64,000 bases of DNA from NCBI GenBank assembly GCA_046563655.1, contig CM102289.1:3162001-3226000 (forward strand), given 5' to 3'. Shown one piece after another: positions 12,903 through 40,495 of the stretch. The translations under genes and the position numbers were made by a program. Under the pieces are notes generated by a model, which worked only from the letters and a program-made list of their open reading frames with translations, was not told the origin of the DNA and made no database searches. The stretch comes from Yuukianura sp. NJ FZ-2021 (Eukaryota). The first letter of the stretch is position 1. Every line of letters begins with the position of its first letter.

Positions 12903-13400
12903 TTAGCGTCTGATTAAAAATATGAAATTATAAAACATGGTATAAACTTTTTTTGAGATTCTTGTGACAATCCATGCACCCGCAACGAAGATCCCAATGA
13001 AAAGGCCAATGACATCTAGTGAATAGTATTCAAAGAAATTGAAATCTCTTGCAGCCGAACGTAGTAGTGGAGCTACGGCATATAAAGAATAAACCAAAAA
13101 AGTTGTAAAACTTCTGCTTGTTCTGTGCCTTTTTCTCAAACATGTTCGGAATACTTGCAACGACCTCGTCTTCATCTTCATCTTCATCAAAATTTCTGTT
13201 ATGTTGGTCACAACTCTCTTGGTAGGTATTGGTGACACGACGGTGACTTCGTGACCTCTAGCTGCCAAAGCTTCTAACAATGGCTCATATGTAATCTTGT
13301 GACTCCGAGCAGAAACGAACGAAAGAGACAAAATCTTTGCTCCGAAAACATTTTCAAAAAGTAGGGAGAAAACGGCGCAAAACAGAAATACTTTAAACAT
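12903..13400 (-). pseudogene. UGT pseudogene with a large internal deletion
   Basis: It starts with a signal peptide plus AKILSLSFVSARSHKITYEPLLEALAARGHEVTVVSP. After a (GATGAA)n slippage near 13170-13190 the UGT-like text (DEVVASIPNMFEKKAQNKQ) continues in a different frame. It then jumps to last-exon sequence (LRSAARDFNFFEYYSLDVIG + TM). The UDP-binding domain is absent. Confidence 0.85.
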
Positions 13401-13846
13401 TTTTAAAAATTTCGAACCTAACTTCACTGTATATTTAAGTAAACAAAAAGTGATGAAAATTTGTCAAGTTCAAAAATTCAATGTTAACTTTTGTAATAAA
13501 AAGTCAGATATCCGTATACAACTTATTTTTATCAAGTTTTTCTTTTTAAAATGATTTTTTGATACTTTTGAGTTTATTGGCTGCCAAAAATCACTTGAAC
13601 CAAAAACGAATTTATGAACTTTTTTTTAGTTTTGGAAGTGGACCAAATCACAATGCATTTAATCACAAGTTGAGTGACCAATTTTGGTTAACTCGTCTAC
13701 CTTTCATATCAGTTTAAACACTTTACACTTCTCTTGTTCTTTGCACGCTGTTTTTTTTTTTCAACAAAACCGAAAAAAAACAGTTAAATTTTTAATCATT
13801 TTTATCATTTCTCTAAACGTTTCGTCAAATTCGCCTCATTGACGAT

Positions 13847-15786
13847 TCAATTTCGTTTTTTAGTTGTTGTTACTTTTGCTTTTGGTCGAGGACAAATACA
13901 ACTCCAAACAAACTGACATGACAGCTTCAATATTTTCGTTACTATCCAAACCACTGTAACCAGCACTGCAAAAATTAAGCCAATCACATCCAAGGAGTGG
14001 TATTGGAAGAAGTTGAGTTCACGGGCAGCAGAACGAAGATGCAGCGCCCCTAGACATAAAAACAAGTTTTTGCGTTAAAGTCCAATTTTATATTAATTTA
14101 CACTGTTGCTAAAATAACTTGGCAAAATTTGACTTCACAAAACTTACCATTGTGTCTTATGACATATTCGACCCAGTATACAGCTCTGTCCAGTGGATGA
14201 TTTGGTTGATCACGGAAAGCGTTAGAAATTGCTGACGATTGAGTTTTGTACCTTAGTTTCAGAAAAAACGTTTAAATGCTGACAATAGGTTTAAATAATA
14301 CAAGTGTTAGAGAAAATATGAGCAACAAATTACTAATAGTACATTGGCAAAATTGTGATTACTTTGATTCAGTCAAAATTTTGTTGATTGCTTCCAAGAG
14401 AGTTTCTTCCGTAAAAGTGTTGAAATCCAAAATGACTCCAAATCCCAAATTGTTTGCTTGACGCATGTTGATTTCTTGGTCAGCGAACATCGGAAGGCCA
14501 ACAATCGGAACACCATGGTACACCGCTTCCGTTGTACTTCCAAATCCACCATGAGTGATAAACGCCCTGCGAAAACCGAAAAGGTCATTGACCTTTACAT
14601 TTTGAAAGCAAAGATCATTGACCTCACTTGATTTTGGGGTGACCCAGAACATCCTGTTGTGGAACCCACTTGCTTAGTTTCACATTTGGCGGCAAATCAT
14701 CCATCTCCTCAGTTTCCCACTTCCAAAGCACTTTCTGCTTCAATTTCGAAAAAACATTGACCAAAACTTTTCTTCTTCCTTCCGGCATTGTGTGTGCTTT
14801 TAGTAAACTTCCCATACTAAACAGAATGAAACCATCATCTCCTGAAGTGGAAACGAAATCTTCTAAATCCTAAAAAGATTTCCAATGTTTTCATAAAATA
14901 GCTATTTACAAATTCGATGTTTATGAAATATGAAATGTTATTACAATGTTAGTAGTACCTTAGGAAGTGGTCCAGCAGAATGACAATGCATTCCACCCAC
15001 TTCCACAATGTCCGGCAGAAATGGACGGATCGTTGCAATGCTAAAATGGCTATTGGACAAAATGAGGCTCGTATTTTTTAAAAGTTCAACAACGCCCGGA
15101 GTGCTTTCTCCGAGTTTCTGTCGGTACGCAGACTCCAAGGCTGGAATCAATATCCAATGTAGGATGACCCTCCAGTAACCTTCAGAAACAAAGTTCACAA
15201 TTCGTTCGTAAAAAGTCATGTGATCAGTAAAACCCGCCATAACATTTGGAACAAACGACGGCGGAGATGGATTTCCATACATTGCTGAAACGGCCGGCGG
15301 TACGCTGAGCGGACTGATTAAAACCACGTTTGTTTTGAATGTTGAAACAAATGCAAGAGCGCATTCGTTCATAATTGCTGGCACCAACACGAGGTCAAAA
15401 TTTTGTGACCTCAGAGCTTGAACGTCTGGTAAATCCAAAGTGTCCAGACAGAGTTTCACTAAATGTGGAACGAGGTCTGTGAAACTCATTTGCTTGTTTT
15501 GTTCCTTGTATTTAAACATGTTTGGCATTCCAGCCGTGACCTGTTCCACATCGAAGGTCAAAATTTCCTTGAGATTTTTCACTGCCTTTTTTGCTGGTAT
15601 CGGAGACACAACGGTGACATTGTGACCCCTGCCTGCAAGAGCCTCAAGCAGGGGATCGTAGGTGATTTTGTGACTTCGGGAAGACATGAACGAAATTGAC
15701 AAAATTTTGGAACCGGACGCATCTTTTGAAATGGAAAAAGTGAGTATGGCACAGGCTACAAGTAAAAACTTCCTTAACGAACACAT
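13847..15786 (-). CDS. UDP-glycosyltransferase (arthropod UGT2-like, ER-anchored), intact, 5 exons: 15786-14959, 14869-14628, 14566-14363, 14251-14148, 14049-13847
   Basis: Signal peptide, SH motif and RGHNVTVVSP. UGT signature [44 protein letters not shown]. C-terminal part has AVYWVEYVIRH, a TM helix and a KKRN ER-retrieval tail. All introns are GT-AG with consistent phase. Confidence 0.95.
14582..14624. promoter_or_regulatory. Paired IR-1 nuclear-receptor-type palindromes in UGT intron 2
   Basis: AGGTCAtTGACCT at 14582-14594 and AGATCAtTGACCT at 14612-14624. Confidence 0.45.
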
Positions 15787-15930
15787 TTCCGTCGTTAGAT
15801 TTTGTACCTTTAATGACTACAACAAAAATTGTACTGATGAGATGAACACTTACGTTTTTAAAACAATCAGTGAAATATTATCACTTTAGCAAACAACCAA
15901 GGAGTTTGGTGAAAAACCTAACGTTTAATA

Positions 15931-16230
15931 CTATTTATCTTTCATATCAATTGAAAACACTTGAAAGATCCTGCTCATGTGGTGCTCTTGTTTGGTGTTT
16001 TTCTTTCCAGTGGAACCAACACGTCTGGGGTTGAACAATATTTCCACATCAAATGTCAAACTTTTCTTGAGATTTTTCACTGCCACTGCCTTTTTGCTGG
16101 TATTGGAGACACAACGGTGACATTGTAACCCTTCCCTGCTAGAGCTCGGGCAGTGTGTCATAGGTGATTTTGTGGCTTCGGGAAGACATAAGCGAAATTG
16201 GTAAAAAGTTTTGAAGCGAAAACATTTTTT
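15931..16230 (-). pseudogene. Degraded 5' fragment of a UGT exon 1
   Basis: Clear nucleotide similarity to 15540-15720 (e.g. gagacacaacggtgacattg, ggtgattttgtg..ttcgggaagacat, KNLKKSLTFDVE), with indels and no downstream exons. Confidence 0.8.
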
Positions 16231-16458
16231 TGAAATGCACAGTGTTGCGAAATGTGTAGAAATGACCCAAAATTAATTAATTATTAAGTGTACAAATATT
16301 AAGTGTATACAAATATAAAGAAATATTAAGAATACAAAATTATATTAAGGCGATTGAAAATCGTAATTTTCCAGGAATTTACAGACCCTACAATGAGTAA
16401 AACATGACAGTGGAGACAAAATCTGTCACTTCTTCTAAGCACTCAAAGAAATTACTAA

Positions 16459-18095: not shown

Positions 18096-19991
18096 CTAAC
18101 TTCGTTTCTTAGTCTGCATTACACTTGGTTTAGATTTAGGATAAATATAACCGGCAACAACTTTAAAAATTTTTGAAATAATGTACAGCACTGTAATCAG
18201 CGCTCCAGCGATCAGACCAAGGACGTCAAGGGAATGATACTGGAAGAAGTTCAGTTCCCGAGCGGCAGAGCGCAAGTGCTTCACCCCTATTAATAGAACA
18301 TGATTTTTTAGTTTAATATTTTGTTTTATATTATCTAATTTTAAACTTAATTATCCAACTCTATTGAGTTCATAGTTAAGGCTAACTTGGGTTGCTTACC
18401 ATTATGTCTGATCACATATTCAGACCAGTATACCGCTCTTTCTAAGGGATGATTTGGCTGGTCACGAAACGAATTCGAAATTGCAGTGGCTTGTTCCTTG
18501 TACCTTTGAACAAACAAAATCAAAAAATTGGTCAAAACTTTAAATTTAAAAAGAATACAGCGTACTCAGCATTGTTTAAGATTTTGTTGACAGCTTCCAG
18601 GAGAGTTTCTTCCGTGAATGTATTAAAATCCAGAATAATTCCCAATCCTAAATTTTTTGCCTGCTCCATGTTTTTTACTTGGTCACCAAACATCGGAAGG
18701 CCAACAATTGGAACACCATGGTATACTGCTTCCGTTGTACTCCCAAATCCACCATGAGTAATAAACGCCCTATAAAAACATAAGAGGTCATTGACCTCGG
18801 TACTACTGGTTGGAAAGGTCATTGACCTCACCTGATTTTGGGGTGACCCAGCACATCCTGCTGTGGAACCCACTTGCTCAGTTTCACATTTGGCGGTAAA
18901 TCATCCATCTCCTCCGTTTCCCACTTCCAAAGCACTTTCTGCTTCAATTTCGAAAAAACATTGACCAACGCTTTTCTTCGTCCTTCTGACATTGTGTGAC
19001 CTTTGAGCAGAGAACCCATGCTGAAGAAAATGAATCCATCATCTCCAGAACTGGATACAAAATCTTCCAATTCCTGAAAAACACAGGTTTTGCAAATTTT
19101 TCAGAAAATTCACTCATATTGAAACTTATTTTGGAAATTCGAAAATTCAAACTGACCTTGGGTAGTGGTACTGCTGGGTGACAGTGCATTCCACCTACTT
19201 CCACAATGTCCGGCAGAAATGGGCGGATGGTCGCTATGCTAAAATGGCTGTTTGACAGTATGAGGCTCGTGTCTTTCATAATTTCATATACGCCCGGTGT
19301 ATCCTGTCCCAGTTTCTCTTTATATGCTGCTTCAATAGCAGGGACAAGAAAGTATTGGCCAATCGCTCCATACATAACTTCCGTACCAAAGTTAACAATT
19401 CTTTGGTAAAAGTCCATTTTATCCGTGTAGTCCGACATCATATTTGGCACAAATGAAGGTGGATTGGGATTTCCATAGCGACTGGCAACAAACGATGGTA
19501 CGCTGAGCGGACTGATCAGAATAATGTTTGTTTTGAGCGTCGACGCAAAGCCCAGAGCACACTCGTTCATAACGGCAGGAACAAAAATGAGGTCAAACTT
19601 TTTTGACTTTAGAGCTTGAACTTGCGGTAAATCCAAACTTTCTTTGCAAATTTTGACCTGTCCCGGTATAATATCAAATAAGGTTAAACTGCTTATTCTT
19701 TTCCTTCATTTCCATCATGTTGGGCATATGGGCTGTGAGTTCATCAACGTCGAAAGTCAATATTTCTGTAATGTTCTTCACTACTTTCTTTACAGGTATT
19801 GGTGACACGACGGTGACCTGGTGACCTCGGGCTGCAAGGGCCTCCAGAAGTGGTTCGTACGTGATTTTGTGACTGCGCGTAGACATGAACGAGAGCGAGA
19901 GAATTTTAGCCCCGGAGGCATTTTGTGGCCAAATCGTGCCAAAAATGACACAAAATAGAACCACGCCGTTCTTTGTAACGAACGTCGTCAT
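18096..19991 (-). CDS. UDP-glycosyltransferase paralog, 5 exons (19991-19157, 19073-18832, 18769-18566, 18503-18400, 18286-18096), with one +1 frameshift near 19682 (pseudogene or assembly error)
   Basis: Same exon structure and UGT signature ([21 protein letters not shown]...MFGDQ) as the neighbour, with a KKRS tail. Removing one base at AACCTTA restores KQFNLFDIIPGQVKIC, which is colinear with the paralog's KQMSFTDLVPHLVKLC. Confidence 0.85.
18784..18828. promoter_or_regulatory. Paired perfect IR-1 palindromes in intron 2 of the second UGT
   Basis: AGGTCAtTGACCT at 18785-18797 and again at 18816-18828. Confidence 0.45.
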
Positions 19992-20506
19992 TTTCGGCTT
20001 CTATGTTCTAGTTATTCAAAATGCTTGAACAAAGTTTTTCAAACGTACCCTCACTTTTTAAAAATGAAAAGTGAGGAGAAAAACATTTCAACTTCTACTT
20101 TTAATTTAGATTAGCTGACGAATCTGTCATGTGGTGAATTCTTATCGCTTTGTTCAAACAATAGAATCACGTTATCCGTTATCAAGTTTCTCACGGTACT
20201 CAGGACGTTTAATTTTGTGAAATTTGAAAGAAACTTTGAACAGAATCTAGTCATGTGCAACTTTAAAAGGATCAACATTTTTCTGGATGCTAGTGGACGC
20301 ATGTGACCTTGAGCGATATAATCATTGAATGATACTCAACGTTTCGTCTGATCCATCCTAAGTTGTTAAAATCGCACCACGTTTAATACTAAAATCCTGG
20401 ATTAATAGAGATGTAACAAAAAAACAGCATTTCAAAAGATTCAATTTTCAAAACCTAAGCGTTATAGAGAAAATAATGCTTGTTTGAAACTAACATTTAT
20501 AAAAAT

Positions 20507-23500
20507 CTAAAGTCCCTCGACAAGTATGCCTCTGGGGGCAGTTGACGGAACGGCTCCATGCTTTCGCTCGTTGTGAACTCGAAGTTGGCGTGCAGAGGCA
20601 TACGGTTTATTGCAAGGAACGCATATATGTGGGTATTCAATCACGTGCGAGCGCATGTGTTGTCTGAGCCTCCGTGCAAGTTTGAATGCTTTTCCACAAG
20701 TTTGACATTGAAATGGGGTTTCCGTTCGATGAACCGTAGCGACATGCTCTGCCAGGTCATTTCGAAAACCAGTCTTGTAGTCACACTCTGTACAGCAAAA
20801 TGCTGCCTCGGAGTGCAACTTCCTGTGGGCATTTAAAATCCCTCCTCGCCTAAAACATTTAAAAACGTTCACATCTTTAACCACGGGAGAATATTTTCAA
20901 AAAAAAAGTTTCAGAAAACAAAACTCACGTGAAAAATCTCCCACAAATGTCGCATTTGATGGGTTCAATTCCAAGTTCCTTCCAGTGCTGGCCTCTCTCG
21001 TGGTCTTCCAGTTCGGACCGTAACAAGAAACCGGAAGGACAGCAACCACAGAAAAATTTGTATTCTCCCTGTATGCGAAATAAGGTAACGTTTAGTTTAA
21101 GTTGCAAAAAGTGAAATGACATAAACAACAACCGAAGAATACAAACTCGCCAATTTGAAGCGACATTCTCCCATGACTTAACTCACCGTGTGTCGCCTAA
21201 GGTGAAGTTTGAGGTAGGATTCAATCTTAAACGTTTTCGGACAAAACGAACATAAAAATGTAGCAGGAGCCCCAGAATGACGAATATGAATGTGATTTTT
21301 ATAAGACGATCGACTGGCGAAGACTTTTCCGCAGTGTTCGCACTTGTGATTTCTAATCATCTTTTCCTTGTGTGACTGAACTTGATGATGTCGCAAGGAA
21401 ACGTAAGTATGATATACTCTGAAGCACTTGTCGCAACTGTATTCCGCAACTAAAATCATCAGAATTTTAGTGAGAATTGCAATTACTTGTTACGCTTTTT
21501 GTTCTTCAGTAATGTTTTCTTACCTTTGGGACTGGTCGTTTGTTGCCCAAGCGCACTAGCAGTCTCATTTTTCTCCTGCTCCTCTGCATCTTGAATTTCT
21601 TTATCCACATCTAGTGAATTTTTCGATGAGTCATCCCCAACTTGAACGTCCATGGACGTTTCTTCTGAAGTCGAAAAGTTGACAAACGTATCTCCAATGT
21701 GTAATTGAAGATGCTGCCGCAAGCTGGTACGTGAATTGAAATCTTTCGAGGCACAATTTTCCATAGGACATTTAGCTGGATACGACTCGATGTTGTCCAA
21801 CATTTGTAGCATATTAAAATGCTTTTCATCTGGTCTCCCTGCTTTCTCCTGCACATTATCATAATGAACTGTCTTGATGTGTAGACGAAGGTCATACTCT
21901 CGGCCAAAGTAGGTTTCATCCTCACAACCTTCAATGAAACATTTTGCGGGAAATGTCAGTTCTTGTAAACTTCGATAATGGGCTTGGAGTTCATGAAATA
22001 ATTTGTTCTGCTTGTCAAAGTTGAATAAATTCCGAGACGTTCTGACTTTATAGTGAACATCACGAATATGGCGCTTGTACATTTCCTTGTTTCCGAACGG
22101 TCTTGTAGAACGATAATGGCAAGATTCAGCATAACAGTATGCAGGGTAATCCAAGTAGTGTGCAGCATAAAGTTCACGTCGCATTTCCGCTGGTTGTTCT
22201 TCTTGATGCATTTTCGTGACATGGAGGTGCTGCCGAACGTGTCCTTGAAGAGCGCGAAGGGTATCGTATGTTTCGTTCAACCAACAGTCGTCCAACGGAC
22301 ATTGACTTGGGAGGGTTCGACTGTGCAGTGAAGTCATGACATCAATTTCAACTTGAGTGACATGTCCGGGTGGTTTTTTAGGCGGATTCGGGTCCAGATC
22401 CCAATGCATCCGATTGATGTGGGTGCGGAGATAATCTCGATTTTCAAATGTTCTTGAAGAAAAACAGTTTTCCAGTGGACATTTAGTGGGGTATGATACT
22501 GTGTTGGACTTGTCAAAAAGTGTCATAAGTACCGATGTGCTTCCTCTCTTTTTTTCAGATCGTACTTTTCTCCTCGGTTTTCGTATGGTACAGCGTGCGC
22601 TAGGAACTTTTACAACTCTACGACTGTGAGTGCGACGCTGCTGCCGTTTGACGGTGACAATTCGAATTCCTCGGTCATCACTGTGGCACTGCTCCCTCAC
22701 TCGATGTAATTTCAAGTGACGTCGCAGTAATACATCAGTCCAGAACGTCTCTCCGCACTCGGCATTTACGCACTTGAGGGGAATCACTCTTGGTCCTAAG
22801 CTTACTGTACACGTCTTCAATTTGTAGCCTCCAGTCGCAGGCTTTTTTTCATTAGAATCTTCGACCGTGTGTTTCTGAATCCTTGCACTAGACCGTTTAG
22901 CTTGACGATCACGACTGTGTGTCGCTTCACTAACTAATAGCGATGAGGAGGATGAAGAGGTAGGAACCATAAACTTCTTCGCATTTTCTTCTAGAGGCAG
23001 AGGGGCAAATGTAAATAACGTTTGAAACCCAATTCTTTCTGAGTTTTTTACTTGGAAGAAATTCTCATTCCAATATTCTTACCCTGATTCACTGCAATCG
23101 GATCGGAAAGTGGAAATTGTACATCGTCATCTTCAAACTGAAAAAAATCTTCGTCAGGGAAAGACGAAGGAGCCGGCTCTGGAATTTCATGAGGCGGTCG
23201 TACCCCGTCATCAGCAGTTGTGGCGAGATTAAAAATCAGTCCTATTAAAAATTCATAACATTTGGCACTTCATTGCTTCTGCTTTGAACTGGGAATGAAC
23301 AGTGAACTTCAATAGACCCTTACGTTGAACTAAGTCCGATCTAACTTTGTCGATATAATCCGAACTGCTGCGGTTGGAAATGCTTGCATAGTAGGAGGAA
23401 AGTATCTGTGCCTGGACTTCAACTTGAGCCTGACGAAGAGTGCGTTGTAGTCTATTCAGCGCATCGAATGATTCCTTTGCTCGTAGAACCTGCATCAACG

Positions 23501-23792
23501 GCATTATAAAATTATACAAAGTTAGGATCTGATGTATCACCCTTCAAATAAAAACTCGTAATTCAATGTTTACCTTATTGTAACAAGTGGAACAGAAGAC
23601 ATACAGAGAAGGGACGAGTGATATTACACTTGCGATGTCCAGGTCATTCTGACCTTCCGGATGTAAAGTATTCTTCAACAATTTTGCAAAGAAAACAATT
23701 TGCTCCTGCTGATGTAGTGCAAAGGAAACACCAGTGTTAGCACATAGTATACAAGTAGACCCAGCCGTTGTCGTCGTATTTCCCGGCATCAT
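20507..23792 (-). CDS. C2H2 zinc-finger protein with an N-terminal ZAD-like CxxC...CxxC domain; 7 exons: 23792-23574, 23489-23324, 23241-23083, 22990-21524, 21449-21187, 21068-20929, 20849-20507
   Basis: CILC...FCSTCYNKV in exon 1. Many C2H2 fingers (CEHCGKVF..H..H, CSFCPKTF..H..HTGE, CQTCGKAF..H..H). GT-AG introns join in frame. Confidence 0.88.
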
Positions 23793-24563
23793 CCCAAGTG
23801 ACCTGTGTCCGGTTCGGTAGGGTCAGGGCGAGGGCACTGACCTCCCGCTCTCTCCGTCTCCTTTGAATAAAATAATATTCATCAGCTTATAATTGCTTAG
23901 GAAAAGAAGTTAGTATTTATCCCTACCTACCTTCCTACTATTTATCACCTACCAATCGTTAACAGAATTCAAATTGAAGAACTCATCGTAGATGCTACTA
24001 CTGATCCCGATTTGTAAAATGATCAACAAAGCAATTTCTCTATCGATCAATGAACCAAGGAAAGGTTGCAGGTTTGTGATCATGATCATAGCTCGGCACT
24101 TTTGCTCCACTCCCGTTCATACAATCCCCGAGCTTGTTGAGGTAAGGTTTACCAACCGTCATTGTAGCCGTACAATGTAGCCACTTGGGCTTCAATGGGT
24201 GAGTGGCTACACTACCACTACGCGGCCACTTTTGTTGCGGCTTGTTAAGTTTCATAAAAACATTTGATAAAAATATGCTTTTTGATAAAAAAAAAACAAC
24301 GGAAAACGACAAACAAATTATTTTTGTAAAAAATGATTTTGGGTTTCGTTTTATTGTACTCAACGCTTTGATGGTTTTACAGGTTAAGTGGGAAAATATT
24401 AGTTAGCATATTGTAAACTTAAGTATCAATTTCTAAAACTTTACGTTACACAAAAGTTAAACGAAAATTACGTTAAAAATGTCATCATCAGGGAAGTTAC
24501 ACCTTAAAAACATTGAAATTAAAAAAGTTACGCTAGTGTTACTTAATATTACTTATCGTTTCC

Positions 24564-27500
24564 CTATTTTGTTTCTTTTGCCAGCAATTGTGCTACTGTT
24601 GCTGTTCTAAGTTCTTGAATCGGAATGAAAATTCCAAATCCCTGTTCCATCATTTGCTTAATTTCAACTGTCATTAGAGAATCCATTCCCAGTTGACCCA
24701 AATTGTAGTTCAAATCCATTTTTTTCGAATCTGCAATTCCTAAAATAGATGCCAATGAATCCAGCAAATTTATTTTTCCCGCTTCACCGCCATTTTTCTT
24801 CTTTTGGGCCATGACTACTGAAGATTTGATTCCAACTGGATTTTGAAGTAGAATATCCAATGCATTCAAGACAGATCTAGAAAACAAAAAAAAATATTGA
24901 AAAAAACAAAACAAAACATTATTCCAAAATCAGTTTCAGACAAAAGTTCCGTCAACCTTACCTGATTCTTTGTGGATGCGCAGAAGCGATGACTTTGTCT
25001 TCAGATGAACCCCCCATTTCAGATTCGACGTAACCCACGTCTCCTATTGGTCCAAACTGAAGTGCCAAACCGGGCAATCCTTCTGCAATTCTTTTCTCTA
25101 CAAGTCGTTCTGCCATAGAATTTCCAAATCCATAATTTGTTTGACCTGCATTTCCTCTAGCAGAAGTCACACTTGAAAATACACAAAAGTAGTCCAGGTT
25201 AAGTCCACAAAATTCACGACTCGCTCGGTCCAGGTTAATCGTTCCAAATACTTTTGGAGAAACAGCAGCTTCGAAATCGCTTAAACTCATAGACTCAATA
25301 AACGAATCTCGTAGAACCATTGATAGGTTGAAAATTCCACCAATAGGAGCTCGGAGTTGGTCAGACGCCATTTTGAATGCTTCTCGCAAGCTATCGTAAT
25401 TGGTGACATCAGTTTTTGGACAAAGCACTTCTGCTCCTGCGCGTTTCCAATTGGCACAGTGGTATCGTTGATACGAATTGGTGACTCCAGATCGATTGCA
25501 CAATATGAACTTTCTTCCACCGCGGGAAATCATCCAGGACACAATTTCAATTCCAGTTTCTCCTAAACCGCCTACTAGAATGTAGGCTTTTGATGGATCA
25601 AAGTACGTCCGAGGAACTGCTAGTGTCTGAATTCGGGCTGCGTCGTTGTTTTGACCGCGCATGCGCACAATGACCTTATGTGGAGTCGATTCTTTGGAAA
25701 TCCCGCGCAGAGCCTCCTGTACATCTTCTTTGTTGTAGTAAATGGCTGGAAGTGGTTTGAGAAATCCAGCGAATAGGAATTCCTTAAACTTGAGAGCCAC
25801 GCAAGCAGTTAGTGGATGATTCTGTTGGAGTAATTCTGAAGGTGCGATCTTGTGAACAGAAATGTTGGTTGCAGCTTTCGGAACTTCTGATTCAGTCGTG
25901 AAATCAAGAAATCTGCCGTTGTTTTTCAGCGTTACGGGAAATTTCTTGAGCGCAATTGGTCCCTCCACGTTGAGAATGACATCAGCATGTCTCAGTTTTG
26001 CAGAAGTCATACGTTCATCGTCGTCAAAGAATATATTTTCATTAGCGATCTGCAATTGAAAAAATTAAGTAAACTGCACACTGTATTTTTTTTATAAAAT
26101 AAGCTTTTTCGAAAAATTTTTTGGAATTGTGAATCTTACAAATGGAAATGTTGTTTTCAAGAACTCCCGCTCTTTTAAACTCGGGGAGCAGATCAACACG
26201 GTGCACTTGAGAGCATTGGCTAAATGAATGGCCGCTTGGCCCAATGGTGTGCTTCCGTTCGTCACCAATATCGTTTCACCTTCTCTCAAGTTGCCCCGAA
26301 ATAGAAGTGCATATATTGCCTGTAAGAAAAAATGCAGTTAGAAAACGGAACCCAACATATTTCAAATTCTCTGAATAAGTAAACAACAAGAATTAAATTG
26401 ACGGCAATTTTGAAATGTAAAAATTCTTACCGTAAAGTACGACATAGGCAAAGTGGCGCCATCTTCCAAAGTTATGTTGCCAGGCAACTCAGTGGAGAAT
26501 CCGTTCGGTCCAATCTGCATTGTAGTTCCAAGTGCAGCAGAATCCGCAATTCCGATGATTCGTCGTCCCTCGCTATCAGTTCCAGAAAATTCAATTGCGA
26601 ATTTCCTGGTGGAGTTTTTCAAAACTCCTTGGGAAATTTGATGAGACGCTTCCGTAAGTTCTGCTAAATTCAAGGAAGCAAAATGCGTTTGAACAAATTT
26701 TTCTGTTTCAACTGCATTAGTGTACGGAGTAGCTTGAATCCAATTGAACGATTGTGGATCTCCTTCTGTCACCATGTCCAGATAGCATTCCTCAGTTTCT
26801 TGTAGTCTGAGGGGTGGCAGTTCACGGTGGAGATAGAATCCATGCGTACCGTTGGAATCAACTACGTTATGAACCAATTCCAAACTCAAAATGGCGCTAA
26901 ACTGCTCATTTGAAATGTCGAATTCATCGCGTTGAGAAGAAATATAGCGAACTGAAGTTCCGCCGGGTTCTTTGCGTAAGCACTTCACTAATCCAACAAT
27001 TCCAGTTTCAAAATCTTGAGGTTGTGCAGTTAGTAAAATTTGTACAGTGGGATCCAACGCTGCTTTGGTCATCGCTGCCTTCAAAGTGTCAAACCACTCG
27101 TAAGTCAATGTGTTCACCGGAATTACAACTTTGGAAGCACCAGATTTGTCCTGCTCAATCTGAAACAAAGGTAGATATGCGAAAATTATTTACCAAATAT
27201 CACACTCTCCGTTTATTTTTTGTATTTTGTATGTTGTTGTGAAGTTTTACCTTTCGCATGAGGTACGCCACTTTGTCATTGAATTTCTGAATTGCGACAA
27301 GCTTTAGATCGCTGATCTGAAGCCGTAAAATGTCCCATTTCGTTGTATTTAGCATGATAACGAACGCTTTGTTCGGAATGATTCCTGGAACCAATGGGAG
27401 AAGTTCTGGAGAGTGAATAACAACGACATCAGCAGCAGCGTTCGGCGCAAGCGCTTTGAATTCTTGCAGAAAATTTTCCGATTCGGATTCCTTAATCACA

Positions 27501-30500
27501 ACGCCTTCTTCGGCACGAAGTTCAGACCAATCTTCATTTTGCCAGTCTTTGGATTTGAACACTGTCTTTTTCACCTAAATTTTTACAATTAGCATTTTAG
27601 CAAATTAGGATTTCGGAAAATATACACTAGTACTTTGGATTTTGTGGACGCAAAACTTTTAAGCACGGTTTATTAGATTGCATAGAGTCGATAACGAAGT
27701 TAAGCTTACCATGTACTCTGTTCTGAACATATCAATTTCCTTGAAGTGATTCACCAGCGCCTCCTCCGGATTGGCCACAAACTCTACATAATCCAGCATC
27801 AACTTGTCAGAATTGTCTATAACAATGTCCATAAGCGCAGTAGTTCGAGTAACGGCAGAAACTGATTCTGAATTGTGATATGGGAAGAACACGGCATCGT
27901 TTAACATTGGGGCACGTTGAGACAGTGGCTTTCTTGTAGCCCTCTTGGTTCCCATTCCCTCCAATTGAAGCCCTGGACAGAAGATTGAGTTTGTTGCTTC
28001 GTTCACTAAAGCGGGAAGTCCTTCTGTTTGAAACGTTGGATTATTTTCAAAGTATTGCTGAACTAGACCGGGGTCAATCACTACTCGCTCAATCGAGGCA
28101 GGAAGATCCAAATCTCGACTACTTTTGGTCAAAATGAGAGACTGGAGCAGAGAATCCAGAAATGACACCCAGTGATTGGTCCATTTGACTTTGGCGGCTC
28201 CTCGTTCCATTGAATGTGATTGGATCCCACGAAATTTTGGTTTGTACTCGTACCCCCGCAGTTTAAGTTCTTTGTAAATATCATTTGTCGTCATTTGATC
28301 AGATCCAAAGGCTTCAGTAAATTGTTCAAAAGGAAATTCATGTGTTTTGGTGCCCAGTTTTAGAATTTTTCCAGTTGCCAATAGACTATTGGATTCTTCA
28401 ATTTCAAAATGGCCGCTGTTGTTTAGGATTTGCACAAACAGTCTCAGGTTGCCTAATTTAAAAACAAGTATAAATTGAGGAAATCGTTGAAATTATAACC
28501 GACGAAGCTTCAGCATCAAAAATTGTAACGTACTTTCTTTAGACAGCAAAATCGGGCGATGAAATTGAACTGATTCAAAAATCACTGGGAAGTTTTCTGG
28601 ACTGGATTCGTTCAAAGATGCAAATGTTCTCCAAGTGGCATACTAGAAAAAAGGGAAAAAAAAATGTTTTGAAAAAATCCAGTTTTCAAAATTTTTGAAA
28701 AACCTGTGATTGTTCTTTGTGAATGTACTTACCAAGTACATTGTGACTGGACAAATATTTCTTCCATCAATTACATGGTCAGCTAAGAACGAATAATCGT
28801 CACTGCTAAGAGACACGTCAACAATTCCTTCACCGGTCATCCTATGTGGCTATAAGTATTCCAAAGTAAAGTTAGGTTAATTTTTAAGTTAAACTAGATT
28901 CTGTTTAGGGTAGTTAGGATTTCTCACCTTCTTGAAACTTCCGACGTCCCAAGAGACAGAGTGATTCCATTGGACAAATGGAGCAATCATGGGCGTGTCC
29001 ACGGAAACCGGAAATTTGACTTCCTCGTACAGTTTTCCAAAATTTACCGAAATTCCTTGCAAGTAGATGCTGCCCAATGCTTCCAAGAAATGCTTGAGGG
29101 GATCCTGTGCATCTTTTCTAGTCAGTCCAATTCGTTTACAATTGACACTGATTCCTCTGCGCAAAAGAGCTTGTAGTAAAGCATGTGGACCCAGCTCCAA
29201 AATAACTGCATCTTCCGGGATGCGATCCAGTGCAGCAGCGAAGTTGACAGGAGACAAAATATTGTTGGCATGGTAGTCAAGGTTGCAAATTTTACCATCC
29301 TCTGCGTCATCATCCACGACTGAAGTGCTAATCCACTTTTGAGATCTGGATTTTGGATTTGTTGTAAGTCCTGGAATGCGTCCATTGCCAAGCATATTTT
29401 TCAGCTCCGCTCCAGCGGGAAAGACGTATTTTGAGTGAAAAGCGAAACCGTTCGTCGGAACTTCTCGGGCGAAAATTCCTTCGGCTTTTAGCGTAGCGAC
29501 AAAGGAACGTATAGAGTCTTCGGGACCAGAAAGTGTGACGCTGTCTTTTGTGTTGTGACAAGCCGGGAAAATATCAGTTGGGCATCGTGCTGCCAGATAT
29601 GCCCAACTCTGACCAACGGCAGCCATGCTACCTACGATGCAATTCTTCTGCGCAGTCGCAAGGGAAATGCCTCTCCAATAGGCTAGTTCAATTGTTTCTT
29701 CATGTGTGAGGCAATTGTCGGCGTAGCTGCAACTGACTTCTCCAACGGAGTGTCCAATGATTCCATCGGGTTCAATTCCCAAGCTTCTTAAAGTATCAAC
29801 GAGTGCAATCTGGTCAAAATTGTAATTTTAAATTCAAGGTCAAAGGTGAAAGAGTTGGTTTGCAGTAAAAATAAAAGTTACCTGAGTTGAGACAATGTTA
29901 ACAAATGAGTCTGTAACGGTGTCAAATGTTGCTGAATTTAATTTTGACAGAAGATCATAGCCAAGTGGCGCCAAAATTGCAGCGCTTTTCTCCATAGACT
30001 TTCGAAATGGTTCGATTTTCATCAAATGAGCTACAGAGGATTGGGAACCCATTCCAGAAAAAATGTAGAAAATTGGTTGGTGTTTACCTAGTGGCACTTC
30101 CTGTGAAAAATATTTAAAGCGTTGGTTTTTATCATATTCTCAATTAAAAAGTTGGAAATTTCAGCAAGTTGCAAATCGGGTAAAATATGTTCTTGTTCGG
30201 AAAGGATGGTGAAAGTTATGTGCATTGTAAAACAAAGCACATAATTGAAAAAAAATTGGTAAAAAAAATTTGCAATTGCAAAACGGAATTGCAATTCTGT
30301 AAGCTTTATAATTCTTACTAACCTCAATCTGTTTGGCTTCCAGACGACTTCCATTAATGTGGTGTATCGGCCAATTTAAATAAATCTAGTATTTATTTAA
30401 TCAAAACTTAAATCTAGGATTAAGTGTGTGTTGGTCGACACCTGACTGCTGAGTGACGAAAAGTGTGGTTTTTGGCAGGGTGGTGGTGACTCTCAAAGTT

Positions 30501-33500
30501 ACCGCCACTCTGGACTCTAAATCTAAACTTATGGGAAGTTGAGATAGGCGCTGAAAAGCGCCGAAACACTACATTCCTTCCCCTCTAAGAAAAGCCACTT
30601 GCCAAAACGTTTGGAAGGGGAGAGAGAAGGACAAGGACCCCAGCATCGTGGTACTTGGTGGGAACCACTGCTTAAGACGGTGGAGGTGGACGAGGCCTCC
30701 AGCAGCACCAAGGTTTTACTAAAACCATCCGCTGAGGGGGTGAGGAAGGTTAAGGTTAGGAAGTGAAGTGACCTTTCACTAAAGAGGAGGTTACAAACAG
30801 AACTGGGGACCTTACTCTAACCTTAGAATTATGTACACTAAAACCGTTACAGTTCAGTTTTTCTTGCCTTTAGCGACACGCGGAAGAACCGGACGACGTA
30901 GAGTCGGTGCAGGGCCTGGAGTTGCTTCCGGGGAAGTAAAAGGACTTTGGTTAGGGCACGTTGTAGTGTAGTCGTCTTCGTCCGGAGACTCATTTTCCGG
31001 AGAGGGTTTAGAATCGGCGTGATTGTTCTCCGTAGGAAGGTGCGGAGTCAGAATCGGAGCGGACGAATAGAGAGACGAGACTTTCCGTGACTTTGGAGTG
31101 GACTGTGGACTTCGTGACGTCACTGGCTCTGGGACTGCAGTGTTCAACGCCACTTCCTCCCTCTCCAAACGAAACGAAAACAGTGCCAATTGTTCGTCGA
31201 CCTTTGACCTTGGTGAGAACCGGATTGGACGAGCGTTGAGGGACCTCTGTTTGGTGTCCTCGTCGTGTACGACTTTTGCACGGGTATCCGTGGCTGACTC
31301 GGTTGGATTTTGAAAAACTGTAATAGACTCATTGAGAACACTTTCCAATGTTAAGTTTTTCACAAAATTGCAACTTGACAAACTTTTACCAATTTCAAAC
31401 CAATTTAGTTTTACCTTACCCATAAGGTCACGGCCAAGTAGAGAAGAACCAGTTGTGACTGGGAACCGATGTGACACAATTTCACCATGGTACATGACTG
31501 TCGTCAGTAACTCACCCTTTGGTCGAAATGTCACGTCTGGATATCCTTTGAAAACGAGGTTTGACTTTTCCAAAGTCGGAGAACCGAGCGATTTCCAAAA
31601 ATCCTCGGAGAGCAGACTGTGCTCAGAACCTGTGTCTAATTCAAAGGAATGGGAAACACCATTGACAATTAGACTTACACACAGTTCCTTACGTTTGACA
31701 GAGTGAACGTGGTTCACTGTCGAAATATTTGAGATTCTGCTGTCGGCAGAATTATCACGTCGGTCATGGACTGACTTTCCCTTTGACCTGCAGAATTTAG
31801 CGAAATGACCCCGTTTTCCGCACGAGTGACATTCCACGTCCTTTTTGTCACAGTCCCTAGCACTGGAGTGACGATTGGATCCGCAATTAGGGCAATTCCT
31901 GTTTTGGTTATCCTGTGGGACATGATTAGACTTTGGTTGAAACTTTTTACCATTACCCTTCCCTTCACGAAAAACAGCGTTGACGATCTCCTCGTTCTGT
32001 TCCGAGTTCCCATCACGAATGAGCTGTTGCGACTTGGTCGCAAGTTCATGCGATTGGGCTAGAGAGAGTACGTCGGCGAGGGAGATGTCGTTTTCCTTTG
32101 TGAACAGTTGTTTCTGCGCTGCGGCGTTACCTAATCCTAGGATAAACTGATCACGGAGACGAGTGTCAAGACAACATGTGAATTTACAAGTTGTGGCTAA
32201 TTTCCTTAGTTCAGCCAAAAATTCAGCAACTGACTCACCATGTTGCTGTACCCTTTTACCAAATTTGAAACGTTCCGAAATCACCTTCGGAGACGGTTTG
32301 AAGTGACTCGACAACGTGTCGATGAGAACTTGTAGTGACTTTGACTTAGGATCCTCAGGCGACAGAAGATCCTTCAGTAGCGTGTACGTACGCATGCCCA
32401 GAGACGAGCAGAAGACGGCTCTGCATCTTGTCTCTTGTTCCTTTTCGTCAATTCCATTTGACAGAAGAAAGAACTTGAACAGATCAGTCCAATCGTTAAA
32501 GTCGTCCTTGTCCTGGTCGAAGGACGGAACCGAACCGATAACGTGGACGAACTGGGTCGTTTTGGAAGAGCTGCCAGAAGCCATGTTATGCTGTTCCTCA
32601 GATATGATCAGTTATACAACTCACAATGATTCGATAATGTAACGTTATGGGGAGAGGTGAATTTCGATTTACCGTGCCCAAATTGTTTACGATTACCGTT
32701 ATCCAGTTGTGTGGTTGTTGCCTTCCAGTGATGTATAATTGCTTGTTGACTAGCCACGCCAAATGTGGTGTATCGGCCAATTTAAATAAATCTAGTATTT
32801 ATTTAATCAAAACTTAAATCTAGGATTAAGTGTGTGTTGGTCGACACCTGACTGCTGAGTGACGAAAAGTGTGGTTTTTGGCAGGGTGGTGGTGACTCTC
32901 AAAGTTACCGCCACTCTGGACTCTAAATCTAAACTTATGGGAAGTTGAGATAGGCGCTGAAAAGCGCCGAAACACTACAATTAAGAACAGCGTAACCACG
33001 GAACGGATGCCCGGGAATGTTCAATTTGTGGATTTCATGACTCAGGGCTGCTAATTCTTTGTGGTGTTCAGTTTTCGCCAACTATATGTAAAAAAAATGA
33101 AGTTACAATTTTTTTTATTTTTAAAAATTTTGGAAATTCTTTGCTCTACCTTATTCAACGCAAACTCGACTGCTTCCGAGGTTCTGCCCGAGAAGGGAAC
33201 AATGAGCGGAATGGAATCGCATTCTGGCGTTTGAAATTGCGCGCCAGGTTTAAAAATTCCATGAACATTGGCTCCGCCCCACCCAAACGAGTTGAGTCCA
33301 AACAGCCCCCGCTCCCATTTTGTATTTTGAGTGACAACCTTGAGGCGTCCGTCAGTCAGCGCAGGAATCTCAGGATTTGGAACATTGTAGTGCAGGTTGG
33401 CCGGTATGAGGCCTGTTTGGGCAGCGACAACCATTTTGGCGACACTGGCAAGACCAGCGACAGGTTCCAAATGACCGACGTTACTTTTGACAGAACCAAT

Positions 33501-34712
33501 CAGAAGCGACTTTTCACGTGTCCCTCCTGAACAGAATACTTCAGCAACAGAGTTCAGTTCTTGTGGATCTCCAGCCTTGGTTCCAGTACCGTGAGCTTCA
33601 AAATACTCGATACTAGATGGCTCCACTCCAACTTCTGCATAAGTCTCCTCCAACAGAATTTTTTGAACTTGACCTGAAGGGAATGTCAAACCATTTGCTT
33701 TGTAACCGTCAGTGTTGCTCCGAATGTTGACGATTGTTAAGTATTCTCGTCGAGCAGAAGATTTCTTTTGCAAAAGTATCACAGCAATTCCTTCACTTCG
33801 AACGTATCCGTCACCTAATTGATTTTAGCAAAAACGAAGGCTAATCAATTTCAGCTAAAGTTAGTTAAGATTCCGCTTTTTATAATAATTTATGACACTG
33901 TTTAGGTTTAAAATTTCACAGGCTTACCTGAGATATCGAAACTTTTACATTTTCCATCAGCCGAAAACATGCCTAGTTTGTGACTATGGAACGACACGTA
34001 AGGATGGAGAACCAAATTTGATCCGCCGACAATTGCCGAATCGCATTTTCCTAGCCGAATGGCGTTGACTGCCGATTCGAGTGCAATCATACTTGAGGAA
34101 CAGGCAGTATCAACTGGAAAGCTTGGGCCTTTGAGGTCAAAAGTAAACGAAATCCGATTGGCTATCATGGACCTGTGATGTCCAGGAGAGACATAACCAT
34201 TGATAAAATCGGGATGAGCAGACAGGAAAGTTTCCGAATCGCTTCCAGACATGCCAATAAACACTCCGGTTTTCGTTCCGCGAAGTTCAACAGGATTCAT
34301 TCCTAAAACACAGGTTTAGTAGAACTCATAGTAATCCAAACAAAACTTGTTTCTTCGAAATCCAAAAATTTGGAATTCAAAAGCTTCAGATTTGAGAAAA
34401 AAATTTCGGCGTACCTGCGTCAACAATAGCTTCATGTGTCAGTTCCAGGAGCATGCGCATTTGAGGATCCATTGACTGTGCCTGTTTATGATGAACTCCA
34501 AAGAACTGAGCATCGAACTTGTCCAGGTTCATGATTCGTCCATTCCGTTCTGGCAGACCGAGAAATCCTGGAGTCCATCTTGGACGTTCCCTCGTCACCA
34601 TATCTTGACCACTCAGAAGTTTTTCTTGAAAAACTTCCATGTTGTCCGAATCCGGCAGCTTGGCTGAAATTCCGGATACGACGATGTCTCCCGTGAACAA
34701 GGTGAAAGGCAT
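24564..34712 (-). CDS. Fatty-acid-synthase-like type I megasynthase (KS-AT-DH-psiMT-psiER-KR-ACP, no TE), ~2057 aa, 14 exons; exon 4 is interrupted by an LTR element
   Basis: Exons: 34712-34415, 34302-33928, 33814-33150, 33081-32980 + 30352-30323, 30100-29882, 29809-28928, 28849-28733, 28642-28534, 28452-27710, 27574-27251, 27159-26431, 26319-26140, 26049-24962, 24876-24564 (6174 nt, in frame). Motifs: KS DTACSSS / EAHGTGT / KSNVGH; AT GMGSQ / GHSVGE / AFHS; DH HVIDGRNICP / LDSLLQ; KR GGLGETG / VLRD / FSS / GQTNYGFGN; ACP LGMDSL. Confidence 0.93.
30358..30573 (-). repeat. 3' LTR
   Basis: Appears identical by eye to 32764-32979. Confidence 0.95.
30854..32584 (-). CDS. Gag-protease ORF, truncated at the start of RT (576 aa)
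   Basis: Gag capsid motifs (QQHGESVAEF, RLRDQFILGL), zinc knuckles (CPNC..H..C, CHSCGKRGHFAKFC) and an aspartic protease (LDTGS, LLGRD). The pre-RT ARPIRF segment is fused to a P/S-rich tail. No RT, RNase H or integrase core. Confidence 0.9.
   Translation of the reverse strand: MASGSSSKTTQFVHVIGSVPSFDQDKDDFNDWTDLFKFFLLSNGIDEKEQETRCRAVFCSSLGMRTYTLLKDLLSPEDPKSKSLQVLIDTLSSHFKPSPKVISERFKFGKRVQQHGESVAEFLAELRKLATTCKFTCCLDTRLRDQFILGLGNAAAQKQLFTKENDISLADVLSLAQSHELATKSQQLIRDGNSEQNEEIVNAVFREGKGNGKKFQPKSNHVPQDNQNRNCPNCGSNRHSSARDCDKKDVECHSCGKRGHFAKFCRSKGKSVHDRRDNSADSRISNISTVNHVHSVKRKELCVSLIVNGVSHSFELDTGSEHSLLSEDFWKSLGSPTLEKSNLVFKGYPDVTFRPKGELLTTVMYHGEIVSHRFPVTTGSSLLGRDLMGKVKLNWFEIGKSLSSCNFVKNLTLESVLNESITVFQNPTESATDTRAKVVHDEDTKQRSLNARPIRFSPRSKVDEQLALFSFRLEREEVALNTAVPEPVTSRSPQSTPKSRKVSSLYSSAPILTPHLPTENNHADSKPSPENESPDEDDYTTTCPNQSPFTSPEATPGPAPTLRRPVLPRVAKGKKN
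32764..32979 (-). repeat. 5' LTR
   Basis: Direct repeat of 30358-30573. Confidence 0.95.
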
Positions 34713-37171
34713 TTTCAAATCAGGTCAATTTTTTAATTCTAAGATTCCTCACTTCCAATCTTTTATGAGAAATATGCGCTTATTTCAGTTTCCTGTATTT
34801 TGTATTAATTCTGCTTGTTTTGAGTTAGACTACGTTGTCTTTTGATTCAAACCGACGTTTGTACTGAAACTGCTGCTACCAGAGTAGCTGAAGTTGAACT
34901 GTGCGTTGAAGTTTTCCGAGTGACAAAATGAAATTTTTTCGTCCAGTTATATACAAATCGAAAAAGCATTAGTCCTTCCTGGATTCATGGATTTATGACA
35001 AAAATGTAAATTGAAGTGGGGAGTTTAGATTATGGTTGTTATTGAGTGACTTCCATGAATGATGTCAGTCAGGATGAAATCATAACTTATACCTTATTGT
35101 TGAGCTAAAAACGTGTCTGGAGTCGTAAGGTAGCAATCCAGATAATCTAAAAATATAAACCTTGACTTCAAACTTTGGAACTGTCATGTCCATTTCCACG
35201 GCGTCTGTCCAAGGACGTAATGTTGTGAACAGATTTTCATGGACATAAACATTTCCTCAGAAGTTATGCTAATACTGTGCCTGTTTGAGTCTGTTTCCTT
35301 GGCTTCCCTTGACCTAGAGTTAGTTGCGTAAGCCATGTTAACGCAACGGTAGGTGTAACTTTATAAGTTCCGTAGGTTAATGTAATGATAAAATTGATCA
35401 TGAACCTTTCTGTTTTCACTTTTATAAATAGTAGAGAACATGTTTTGAGTGATGTCATGAGAGTGGATAGGTATGGAAATAGTTGACTTGAAACAAACGA
35501 GTTCCGTGCAGTTGATCAGTTCGCATTATTTGGTGACTTCATGAGTTTACACGCAAATGTAGCATGTCTATTTGGAACACTTGAAAATTGTTTACGCAGA
35601 GTATGATGTCAGTTTGATTCCCGACCCGATACTCAATACGCATATTTGTTTTAGTAATTTAATGAAAACTGAAGAGTTAATTATTTATTTATTAATTATT
35701 AACTTGAGTGAATTATTTCACATTAATCATGCCAAATTGCGACTTTCTTACACAAAAACAATTTTTGTTTCGGTCTTTTTCCAAACAATTTGTTGCGTAT
35801 CTGCTCAAAATTCCTCAAAAGTTATAACTTTTGACGTGTCACAAAACCACTGGAATGCAAAACCCAAGGCTAAATATCAAAATTTCAAAGTCTCATGTAC
35901 TGGTTTTATAACTTTGAGCATTTTGTTTCTAGGAATTGTATAAATTGTTAAAATTTTTTAGTAAAAGAAGAACTTGATAAAATTCAACATTTCCTAAAGC
36001 TGCTTAAATAGGTTTCCTACAAAAAAAATTTTTTTTGTTCAGATTTTCATTGATTTATAGTCCTTGCATTTTAAATTTTAAACGACAAAACAGTATGTAA
36101 TTTTGCCATTAAAATGCTCATAAAATGTCCAAATCGGAGATAATTATTAGTTTTACTTTCAACCGGATGGTTTCAATAATTCTTTGCCAAGTCATGTTTT
36201 AAAGTAGTTACCTCCAAGGCTACTTATTCTTGTCTTACCAAGCCATTGGCATATCACTCTCACAAAAACATGTAATTTTGGGTGTTGAATTCCGATTTAA
36301 ATTTTAGCATTTCCAATTTTACATTGATTTTCCATGTCAGTTCATGTAATGTTTGCATTATTTTAAATTCAGCCTTAGTGCCCTTCGGCGTCCGCTTTAA
36401 GGAAAGTTTGGGAATTAAATATAATTAAGTAACTTTGCATGTGAAGTTAACAGTTAATGGTTGGCTTAGGAAGATTTTCGGCTGTGATAACTTCCAGAAT
36501 AAAAAGGCAACCGCAACCGCACTGCTTCTTCTGAAGTATCTGAAGGCGTTTTGCACAATATCCTACAAGAATTTTCAAGTCTGGACCGTTGCGTTGTCAA
36601 AAATGCTCACTACCTTCGAATTGAGCGTTTTCAGAAAATTTTTAGCATCTGCTACTAAATATAATTTACTTGAAGTCGAATACAGCCAAGAGCTGGATAA
36701 ACTCGTAGTTGTTAAAGGTGGTAAATTGCGTTTTATTGGAACAATTGCGTTAGTTATTCATTGTGCAGGCGTTGCTGTTTGTCTACTTCGAGCGATCACG
36801 ACGGATTCCATTAGCCTAAAAGCTGTTGCAGCGTTTATGAGTTTGACAGTCTTGGTCGGAGTTGCGTATCGCATTCCAATGATGTTAAATACCAACGAGG
36901 TTGTTACTCTTGGCAACAACATTTTGGTGATCAACGATGTCTTGAGTAATTTTATCAATCAATCAATCAATTTTTATTTGATTTGGCCTTTTGCCCTATC
37001 AATTACAAATCCTGCAGCTCATTTAAGTTAAAAGTAATAAAACAAATTAGCAAAGTCAAGTAGGTAGAAAAATTAAAATAAGTAAGAAGATGTAAGTAAT
37101 ACGAAGTCAAAAGTAGAATTAGGGGGACTTAATGATGTGTGCAATGGGAGAGAATTAGAGGTGTCCCGCGG

Positions 37172-40420: not shown

Positions 40421-40495
40421 GTTGGTTAAAAATGTTTCGCTGCAGGATCCTGTACTTGTTTTGTTTAGTAGGCTATTGATAGGGCGGCCGAGTCC

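Follow-up and report, generated by a model that had tools for sequence, protein, structure and literature searches.

According to the available sections of Lin et al. 2024 (PMC10764717), all animal fatty acid synthases (FAS) contain a thioesterase (TE) and the mollusc clades 1-3 of animal FAS-like polyketide synthases (AFPKs) are without it; arthropod AFPKs are described as FAS-like in their architecture, "including a TE domain", and insect FAS paralogues are linked to hydrocarbon synthesis. In the accessible part of PMC11831141, EcPKS1 and EcPKS2 of the sacoglossan Elysia chlorotica (PDB 9CQ1, 9CTK/9CTL) are described as KS-AT-DH-MT0-psiKR-ER0-KR-ACP enzymes (KS, ketoacyl synthase; AT, acyltransferase; DH, dehydratase; MT, methyltransferase; psiKR, pseudo-ketoreductase; ER, enoylreductase; KR, ketoreductase; and ACP, the acyl carrier protein) that make polyene pyrones, the nonfunctional ER accounting for the polyenes and the ACP C-terminus for the pyrone. 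Their offloading possibly occurs via spontaneous pyrone formation, and for most such proteins the route is given as unknown in the same available sections of PMC10764717. No description of a TE-less insect or springtail FAS was found in the open-access literature searched. The subject of this work is a FAS-like gene (24564..34712, minus strand; hereafter the synthase) in a 64,000-nt stretch of contig CM102289.1 (assembly GCA_046563655.1, positions 3,162,001 to 3,226,000), called the window, whose numbering is used throughout. Judged from its sequence, the gene probably represents a FAS-derived, iterative type I megasynthase that terminates in the ACP, carries an eroded ER (ER0) and releases its product without a TE, the copy present here having been knocked out by a long terminal repeat (LTR) retrotransposon.

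The layout itself is already known, since TE-less FAS-like synthases were published for molluscs. The synthase has the same domain order as EcPKS1/2, with a C-terminal ACP instead of a TE and an ER that is structural but eroded (PMC11831141, accessible part), and by virtue of this ER0 and ACP C-terminus it fits the EcPKS-type architecture. It differs from EcPKS1/2 in its host, which is probably an arthropod, and in a shorter pseudo-methyltransferase (psiME) region. Like the members of the arthropod AFPK clades ar-1 to ar-4 of Lin et al. 2024 (PMC10764717), it is a FAS paralogue that has diverged, here in a genome of arthropod-like character, and belongs to the sort of gene relabelled there as AFPK; unlike them, as far as the available text of that paper describes them, it is without a TE. 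In comparison with canonical arthropod FAS, it lacks the TE (about 300 residues), its ER is eroded and it sits on a long branch.

The 3' end of the gene

The last coding exon, encoding a linker and the ACP, was delimited by the Pfam PP-binding match, the splice acceptor and the frame at 24567..24876 on the minus strand and is followed by a TAG stop codon (24564..24566, minus). The last intron (24961-24877) is a consensus intron reading CAGGTAAGG...TTTTCTAG, and its acceptor sets the exon start at exactly position 24876. The stop-to-stop open reading frame (ORF) of this region (24564..24929, minus) has the C-terminal letters ...LGQLGMDSLMTVEIKQMMEQGFGIFIPIQELRTATVAQLLAKETK followed by the stop, and the protein ends in ...LLAKETK. 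Of the 103 residues of this exon, the PP-binding match covered 37-99 (E 8.9e-10). The pantetheine-bearing serine of its GMDSL motif corresponds to residue 2019 of the gene model and is separated from the stop by 37 residues; the ACP model ends 4 residues before TAG. The next minus-strand ORF begins near 23792, some 772 bp downstream of the synthase stop, and its first residues are MMPGN. Position 24876 is the very coordinate given in the earlier note on this DNA, which was right in placing the end of the synthase directly after the ACP and the next gene at a distance of ~770 bp. The segment 24876-24564 is most likely the true last exon, and the protein end looks natural, without a release domain. 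A possible poly(A) signal, AATAAA (24350..24355, minus), was found 209 nt past the stop; no other AATAAA or ATTAAA hexamer precedes the next gene, although in such an AT-rich region it constitutes weak evidence.

The spacer to the next gene (23790..24563, minus) contained no family-bearing ORF, no GxSxG and no TE signal. Pfam returned no family for five ORFs of the spacer, among them 24040-24402, 23949-24116, 23992-24180 and 24203-24406, or for the two ORFs opening the next gene downstream. The motif GxSxG was absent from all six frames of 23790-24566, in accordance with the earlier statement that no TE-like ORF of this kind is visible there. The tblastn comparison of three TE-bearing proteins (P0001, P0005 and P0009) with the whole window gave matches of their TE parts no better than E=1.7. 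Moreover, all 2,680 six-frame window fragments of at least 15 aa were searched unfiltered with a TE profile for which 148 tails from relatives had been used; its best match had E=5, i.e. no TE was detected, and the positive control P0001, kept outside the training set, scored 4.6e-62. The HMM check for a downstream TE proposed in the earlier note was therefore negative, here with Pfam as well as with the profile, and the hidden TE exon was dropped as a candidate after tblastn, the profile, Pfam on the spacer ORFs and the GxSxG scan had all failed to reveal it. Likewise, no hydrolase or thioesterase that could serve as a release partner was identified among the 24 window ORFs of at least 108 aa that were scanned.

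Domain content, enoylreductase and retrotransposon insertion

The gene model, derived with guidance from relatives, comprises 2,057 codons with one terminal stop after omission of the LTR element and of one TTAAT copy. It contains 13 short GT-AG introns of 68-222 nt and includes a 109-nt DH exon that was hidden in the ORF list; the G+C content is about 38%. The domain order of the encoded protein is KS-AT-DH-(short psiME)-psiKR-ER0-KR-ACP. Pfam applied to the ORF pieces identified the KS, the KS C-terminal extension, AT, DH, the FAS pseudo-KR, KR and ACP, and nothing past the ACP.

All domains are encoded on the minus strand. The KS is distributed over three exons (33150..34712), matches ketoacyl-synt and Ketoacyl-synt_C and retains the Cys-His-His motifs DTACSS, EAHGTGT and KSNVGH. 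The KS-AT linker is encoded by coding exon 4, which is severed by the insertion; its first part (32980..33081) was recognized by tblastn and sequence and its remainder past the insertion (30323..30352) by sequence. The AT (28928..30100, Acyl_transf_1 E 6.1e-49) carries the motif GHSVGE. The DH, with the motif HVIDGRNICP, comprises three exons (27710..28849) including the 109-nt one (28642-28534). The short pseudo-methyltransferase remnant and the pseudo-KR follow at 26839..27574 (FAS_pseudo-KR E 1.2e-16), the eroded ER-homologous region at 25588..26838 with the loop GSTPLG at 26256-26239, and the KR at 24962..25587 (Pfam KR E 1e-42) with GGLGETG and the Ser-Tyr-Asn stretch FSSV...NYGFGNS. The catalytic motifs of KS, AT, DH, KR and ACP are all present, with few conserved columns changed.

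The ER is the domain in which the synthase departs most from canonical FAS. Its exons gave only an ADH_zinc_N remnant in Pfam (12.7 bits versus a cut-off of 31.8), whereas P0004 and P0074, two TE-less relatives scanned alongside, matched both ADH_zinc_N and ADH_zinc_N_2. Among 146 aligned ER regions, 137 share the NADPH loop G[STAGC]GG[VI]G, in place of which the model has GSTPLG. Erosion was quantified per domain by counting the mismatches at conserved columns, defined as positions where at least 90% of the relatives agree, and by the score against profiles of canonical arthropod FAS, expressed as a ratio to the canonical median (118 sequences per profile, but 71 for psi). In the ER, 33 of 73 conserved columns were changed and the profile ratio was 0.23. 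The corresponding values were 3/80 and 0.76 for KS, 4/45 and 0.65 for AT, 8/47 and 0.48 for DH, 3/18 and 0.36 for psiME/psiKR, 3/26 and 0.60 for KR, and 1/12 and 0.58 for ACP; canonical FAS depart from their own consensus at 0-2 such columns in each domain (medians). The ER of the synthase thus has neither the loop G[STA]GG[VI]G nor the conserved ER core of canonical FAS, and it is presumably an ER0, retained for structure and not for catalysis. Such selective erosion argues, independently of the missing TE, against a bulk saturated fatty acid as the product.

Eight sequences of the alignment, the model included, had a non-canonical loop, and seven of them end after the ACP; the eighth, with GSGAVG, is TE-bearing. 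The relatives concerned (P0042, P0087, P0110, P0139, P0088, P0089 and P0049) are spread over several supported clades, a distribution suggesting that loop and TE were lost together more than once. The reverse combination was observed for the mollusc FAS-like protein P0005 (Pinctada imbricata), in which the TE is present but the ER shows erosion, with changes at 31 conserved columns and a ratio of 0.28; Pfam methyltransferase families stand in its precomputed list.

Coding exon 4 is interrupted between KS and AT by an LTR retrotransposon of 2,622 bp (30358..32979, minus). Its LTRs (32979-32764 and 30573-30358) are 216 bp each, begin with TG and end with CA, and are 100% identical. The target-site duplication TTAAT is present at 32980-32984 (first copy) and 30353-30357 (second copy), and the interior of the element opens, behind the 5' LTR, with a primer-binding site of the TGG type and closes, ahead of the 3' LTR, with a purine tract. 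The sole ORF of the element (30854-32611, 585 aa) encodes zinc knuckles and an aspartyl protease (Pfam Asp_protease_2), so that direct LTRs, target-site duplication, primer-binding site, purine tract and gag/protease ORF, by which LTR retrotransposons are recognized, were all found. No reverse transcriptase or integrase is encoded in the element, which is non-autonomous as it stands, and no second copy of the LTR or of the interior was detected within the window. In tblastn, P0004 and P0007 aligned in frame up to the LTR edge (32983 and 32968, respectively), and the element flanks join as ...HPFRGYAVLN|GSRLEAKQIE, a usual KS-AT linker, which indicates that the insertion took place in coding sequence. 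The copy in the assembly is disrupted and the full-length enzyme is not encoded as assembled. That the LTRs are identical and that the ORF is otherwise clean points to a very young insertion, and the disruption could be restricted to one haplotype.

Relatives, phylogenetic position and genomic neighbourhood

When the KR exon was searched exhaustively against 1.84 billion representatives, 27,522 proteins matched at E<=0.001, none of them more than 49% identical among the best 150, and in word-based searches relatives reached at most about 40% identity. A protein atlas searched with the same exon gave KR fragments from bacteria and algae as its nearest clusters, which are uninformative as to taxon or family. 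The top match of the exhaustive search, P0020 (3,397 aa), matches the KR in two stretches, and its end lies 3 residues from that of the model; either this is a FAS-like protein with two modules, or the prediction has joined two tandem genes. Over the entire length the synthase was 38-42% identical to the closest proteins retrieved. The highest identity was found for the Orchesella dallaii FAS (P0258), with 41.6% overall and 55% over KS-AT; this protein is collinear with the synthase up to the ACP, and the synthase groups with the clade of this FAS with moderate support.

The C-termini were compared in an alignment of the model with 76 relatives, a non-random sample composed of KR-search matches and hand-picked canonical FAS. 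Fourteen of the 76 end within 5 residues of the model end and 24 within -2 to +28 residues of it. A tail of more than 200 aa past the model end, i.e. a TE, was present in 44; the others had intermediate tails (3) or short tails (2, with 42 and 54 residues) or broke off early (3). P0004 (1,932 aa, named fatty acid synthase at its source) and the millipede protein P0074 (Chamberlinius hualienensis CHUAL_007875, 2,097 aa) both end at PP-binding and have no PF00975 at E<=1. P0074 is encoded in tandem with CHUAL_007878 (P0178), which is also TE-less. These three proteins end at most 4 residues from the end of the synthase and are 35-38% identical overall to the model, but differ from it in a well-kept ER. 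In the listed set, PF00975 was absent from 8 of 120 proteins; besides the millipede pair, the named TE-less examples are records from Solenopsis, Myzus, Cinara, Macrosiphum, Callosobruchus and, labelled as partial, Eretmocerus. Some TE-less records adjoin near-identical TE-bearing FAS in the trees and may be isoforms or incomplete predictions.

Trees were built from region-wise alignments. The animal FAS/AFPK clade was separated from two polyketide synthase (PKS) outgroups with full support (100/100). In a quick tree of psiKR, KR and ACP with the ER columns dropped, the model was paired with the TE-less P0004 (98 in the SH-like approximate likelihood-ratio test). In a careful concatenated tree this pair was recovered (82/83) next to a clade of the Orchesella dallaii FAS with two further proteins (82/95), and the same five rows were kept together at 93 in an LG+C20 mixture tree of 23 rows. 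The model joins this Orchesella-containing FAS clade (82/95, 93) with an end branch of 0.83-1.35 versus 0.15 for Orchesella. These results moderately support the view of the gene as a FAS duplicate of a springtail-like lineage that is TE-less together with P0004. The latter is its probable sister, and the millipede pair P0074/P0178 stands elsewhere in the trees. That the end is shared with a protein only 38% identical overall argues against a recent truncation.

Directly downstream of the synthase lies a multi-C2H2 zinc-finger gene (20507-23822, minus), in whose first ORF the CxxC...CxxC N-terminus resembles a ZAD; Pfam gave no match for it. It is followed downstream by two tandem UDP-glycosyltransferase genes (12903-16272 and 18532-20000, minus), with Pfam UDPGT on several exons. 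On the other side, upstream of the synthase and about 2.5 kb from its start, lies a non-LTR retrotransposon ORF (37172-40495, minus) of 1,107 aa. This ORF is uninterrupted, encodes an endonuclease and a reverse transcriptase (Pfam RVT_1 E 1.1e-38) and coincides with a strong GC and AT skew at 36-42 kb. Between this element and the synthase start, a 200-aa open frame (36429-37031, plus), rich in hydrophobic stretches and with no Pfam family, was identified. An acyl-CoA desaturase gene is located at ~55000-58800 (plus), about 20 kb from the synthase. Its exon 57433-57987 matches Pfam FA_desaturase and has its best named relative in Orchesella cincta (65%), other matches reaching 66%. The neighbourhood thus contains two lipid-pathway genes. 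The Orchesella proteins as best named matches of synthase and desaturase, together with the short introns and the G+C content of about 38%, would suit a collembolan or some other early hexapod; the species of the window is absent from the protein sets.

Interpretation of the locus

According to the explanation put forward above as probable, the locus would never have had a TE exon and the gene would be a long-branch duplicate of an arthropod FAS, probably from a springtail-like hexapod, with a likely nearest relative that is also TE-less. With the catalytic motifs of KS, AT, KR and ACP kept, and with an ER that has lost its NADPH glycine loop and about half of its conserved positions, the intact enzyme would produce a chain retaining double bonds, i.e. 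a polyene-like or partly reduced polyketide-type lipid, and not palmitate. The chain would be released without a cis hydrolase, by spontaneous lactonisation/cyclisation as published for EcPKS1/2, or alternatively by a separate enzyme acting on acyl-ACP. The identity of only 38-42% to any protein retrieved supports the notion that this is not the housekeeping FAS. Because the copy is interrupted by the retrotransposon, functional claims require an uninterrupted allele.

With regard to the broader claims of the earlier note, the departure from canonical animal FAS stands as far as the missing TE is concerned, but its oddity was overstated, given the TE-less precedents in molluscs and the 24 of 76 relatives that end close to the model end. 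The suggested release in trans or by a spontaneous reaction agrees with the lack of a cis TE and with the EcPKS1/2 precedent; we infer it from these, no partner having been found in the window. A specialised product is a reasonable proposal, strengthened by the ER erosion, but tempered by the TE-less relatives with an intact ER and by the interruption of this copy. As regards the recommended KS phylogeny, the model fell into a basal polytomy of the animal clade on KS-AT.

Several results weigh against the explanation favoured here. Arthropod AFPKs are presented as TE-keeping in the available part of PMC10764717, and this synthase has no TE. The KS exon matched human FAS with 1.2e-68 as compared with 3.2e-57 for EcPKS1 and 1.1e-52 for EcPKS2, and the KR exon matched Drosophila FASN1 with 5.4e-62 as compared with 1.6e-49 and 2.6e-42, respectively. 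Human, pig and Drosophila FAS outranked EcPKS1/2 for both exons, and in the PDB search with the KS, FAS scored 1e-68 and bacterial PKS 1e-36 or weaker. The likeness to EcPKS1/2 is thus one of architecture and not of orthology. The TE-less P0004 and the millipede proteins keep a good ER (ratios 0.66 and 0.79), so the loss of the TE alone is no proof of a polyketide product. Read as it stands in the assembly, the frame closes at codon 494. The protein sets searched yielded no ortholog with an identity above about 50%. As to the phylogeny, the KS-AT quick tree leaves the model in a basal polytomy of the animal clade, a concatenated quick tree (KS-AT and C-terminal columns) does not contain the model-P0004 pair, the LG+C20 tree leaves the order within the five rows open, and the model, P0004 and the rows around them are all long branches.

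In vertebrate FAS, release in trans by a separate thioesterase occurs, and the synthase could similarly be a fully reducing FAS without a TE of its own, in which the ER works and a separate thioesterase or transferase frees a saturated fatty acid, ordinary or chain-length-shifted, for example for cuticular lipids. The well-kept ER of the TE-less P0004 and P0074, the frequency of TE-less forms among arthropod FAS-like proteins (the 8 of 120 in the listed set) and the tie of insect FAS paralogues to hydrocarbon synthesis (PMC10764717, available sections) speak for such an enzyme. However, in the synthase the ER alone has collapsed (33/73, ratio 0.23, GSTPLG, sub-threshold Pfam) while the other catalytic domains are kept, which makes full reduction an unlikely explanation. 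More improbable still is that the whole locus is a decaying pseudogene whose TE disappeared by recent truncation. The element in coding exon 4 with the resulting stop, the eroded ER and psiME regions and the long branch would all be expected of a pseudogene, but the 2,057 codons and 13 consensus introns show no stop or frameshift besides the insertion, which the identity of the LTRs over 216 bp marks as very young. The erosion is limited to the ER and psi regions, with the KS, AT, KR and ACP motifs kept; the protein end matches that of 14 of 76 relatives, including the probable sister at 38% overall identity, and no remnant of a TE is left in the 24.5 kb downstream.

A TE exon located beyond the window, or one joined on by alternative splicing with omission of the TAG, can be credited with only a very slight chance. 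Two weak in-frame GT sites (24668 and 24596) are indeed present within 100 nt of the exon's 3' end, but no TE-like coding potential was found on either strand within the window, the separate zinc-finger gene on the same strand begins ~772 bp downstream with the two UDP-glycosyltransferase genes beyond, and relatives stop at the same residue.

The favoured explanation of an ACP-terminal FAS derivative with an ER0 may be extended, tentatively and as a possibility that we rate rather low, to an evolutionary scenario. A duplicate of the housekeeping FAS in the springtail lineage would have lost its TE, a loss shared with P0004, and later, in the present branch, its enoyl reduction, converging independently on an ER0, ACP-terminal polyene-pyrone synthase of the type hitherto shown only for sacoglossans. 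It would then be a candidate for defence or cuticle chemistry, and the LTR insertion would represent a segregating natural knock-out.

AFPKs were recognised only recently, and EcPKS1/2 are so far the only ER0, TE-less makers of polyene pyrones that have been characterised. This locus and the relatives with the same end indicate that ACP-terminal FAS derivatives occur in arthropods too and that in some of them the loss of the TE accompanies the decay of the ER. Such proteins are candidates for the sources of unexplained arthropod lipids or polyketides and offer a test case for how a chain exits a megasynthase without a release domain.

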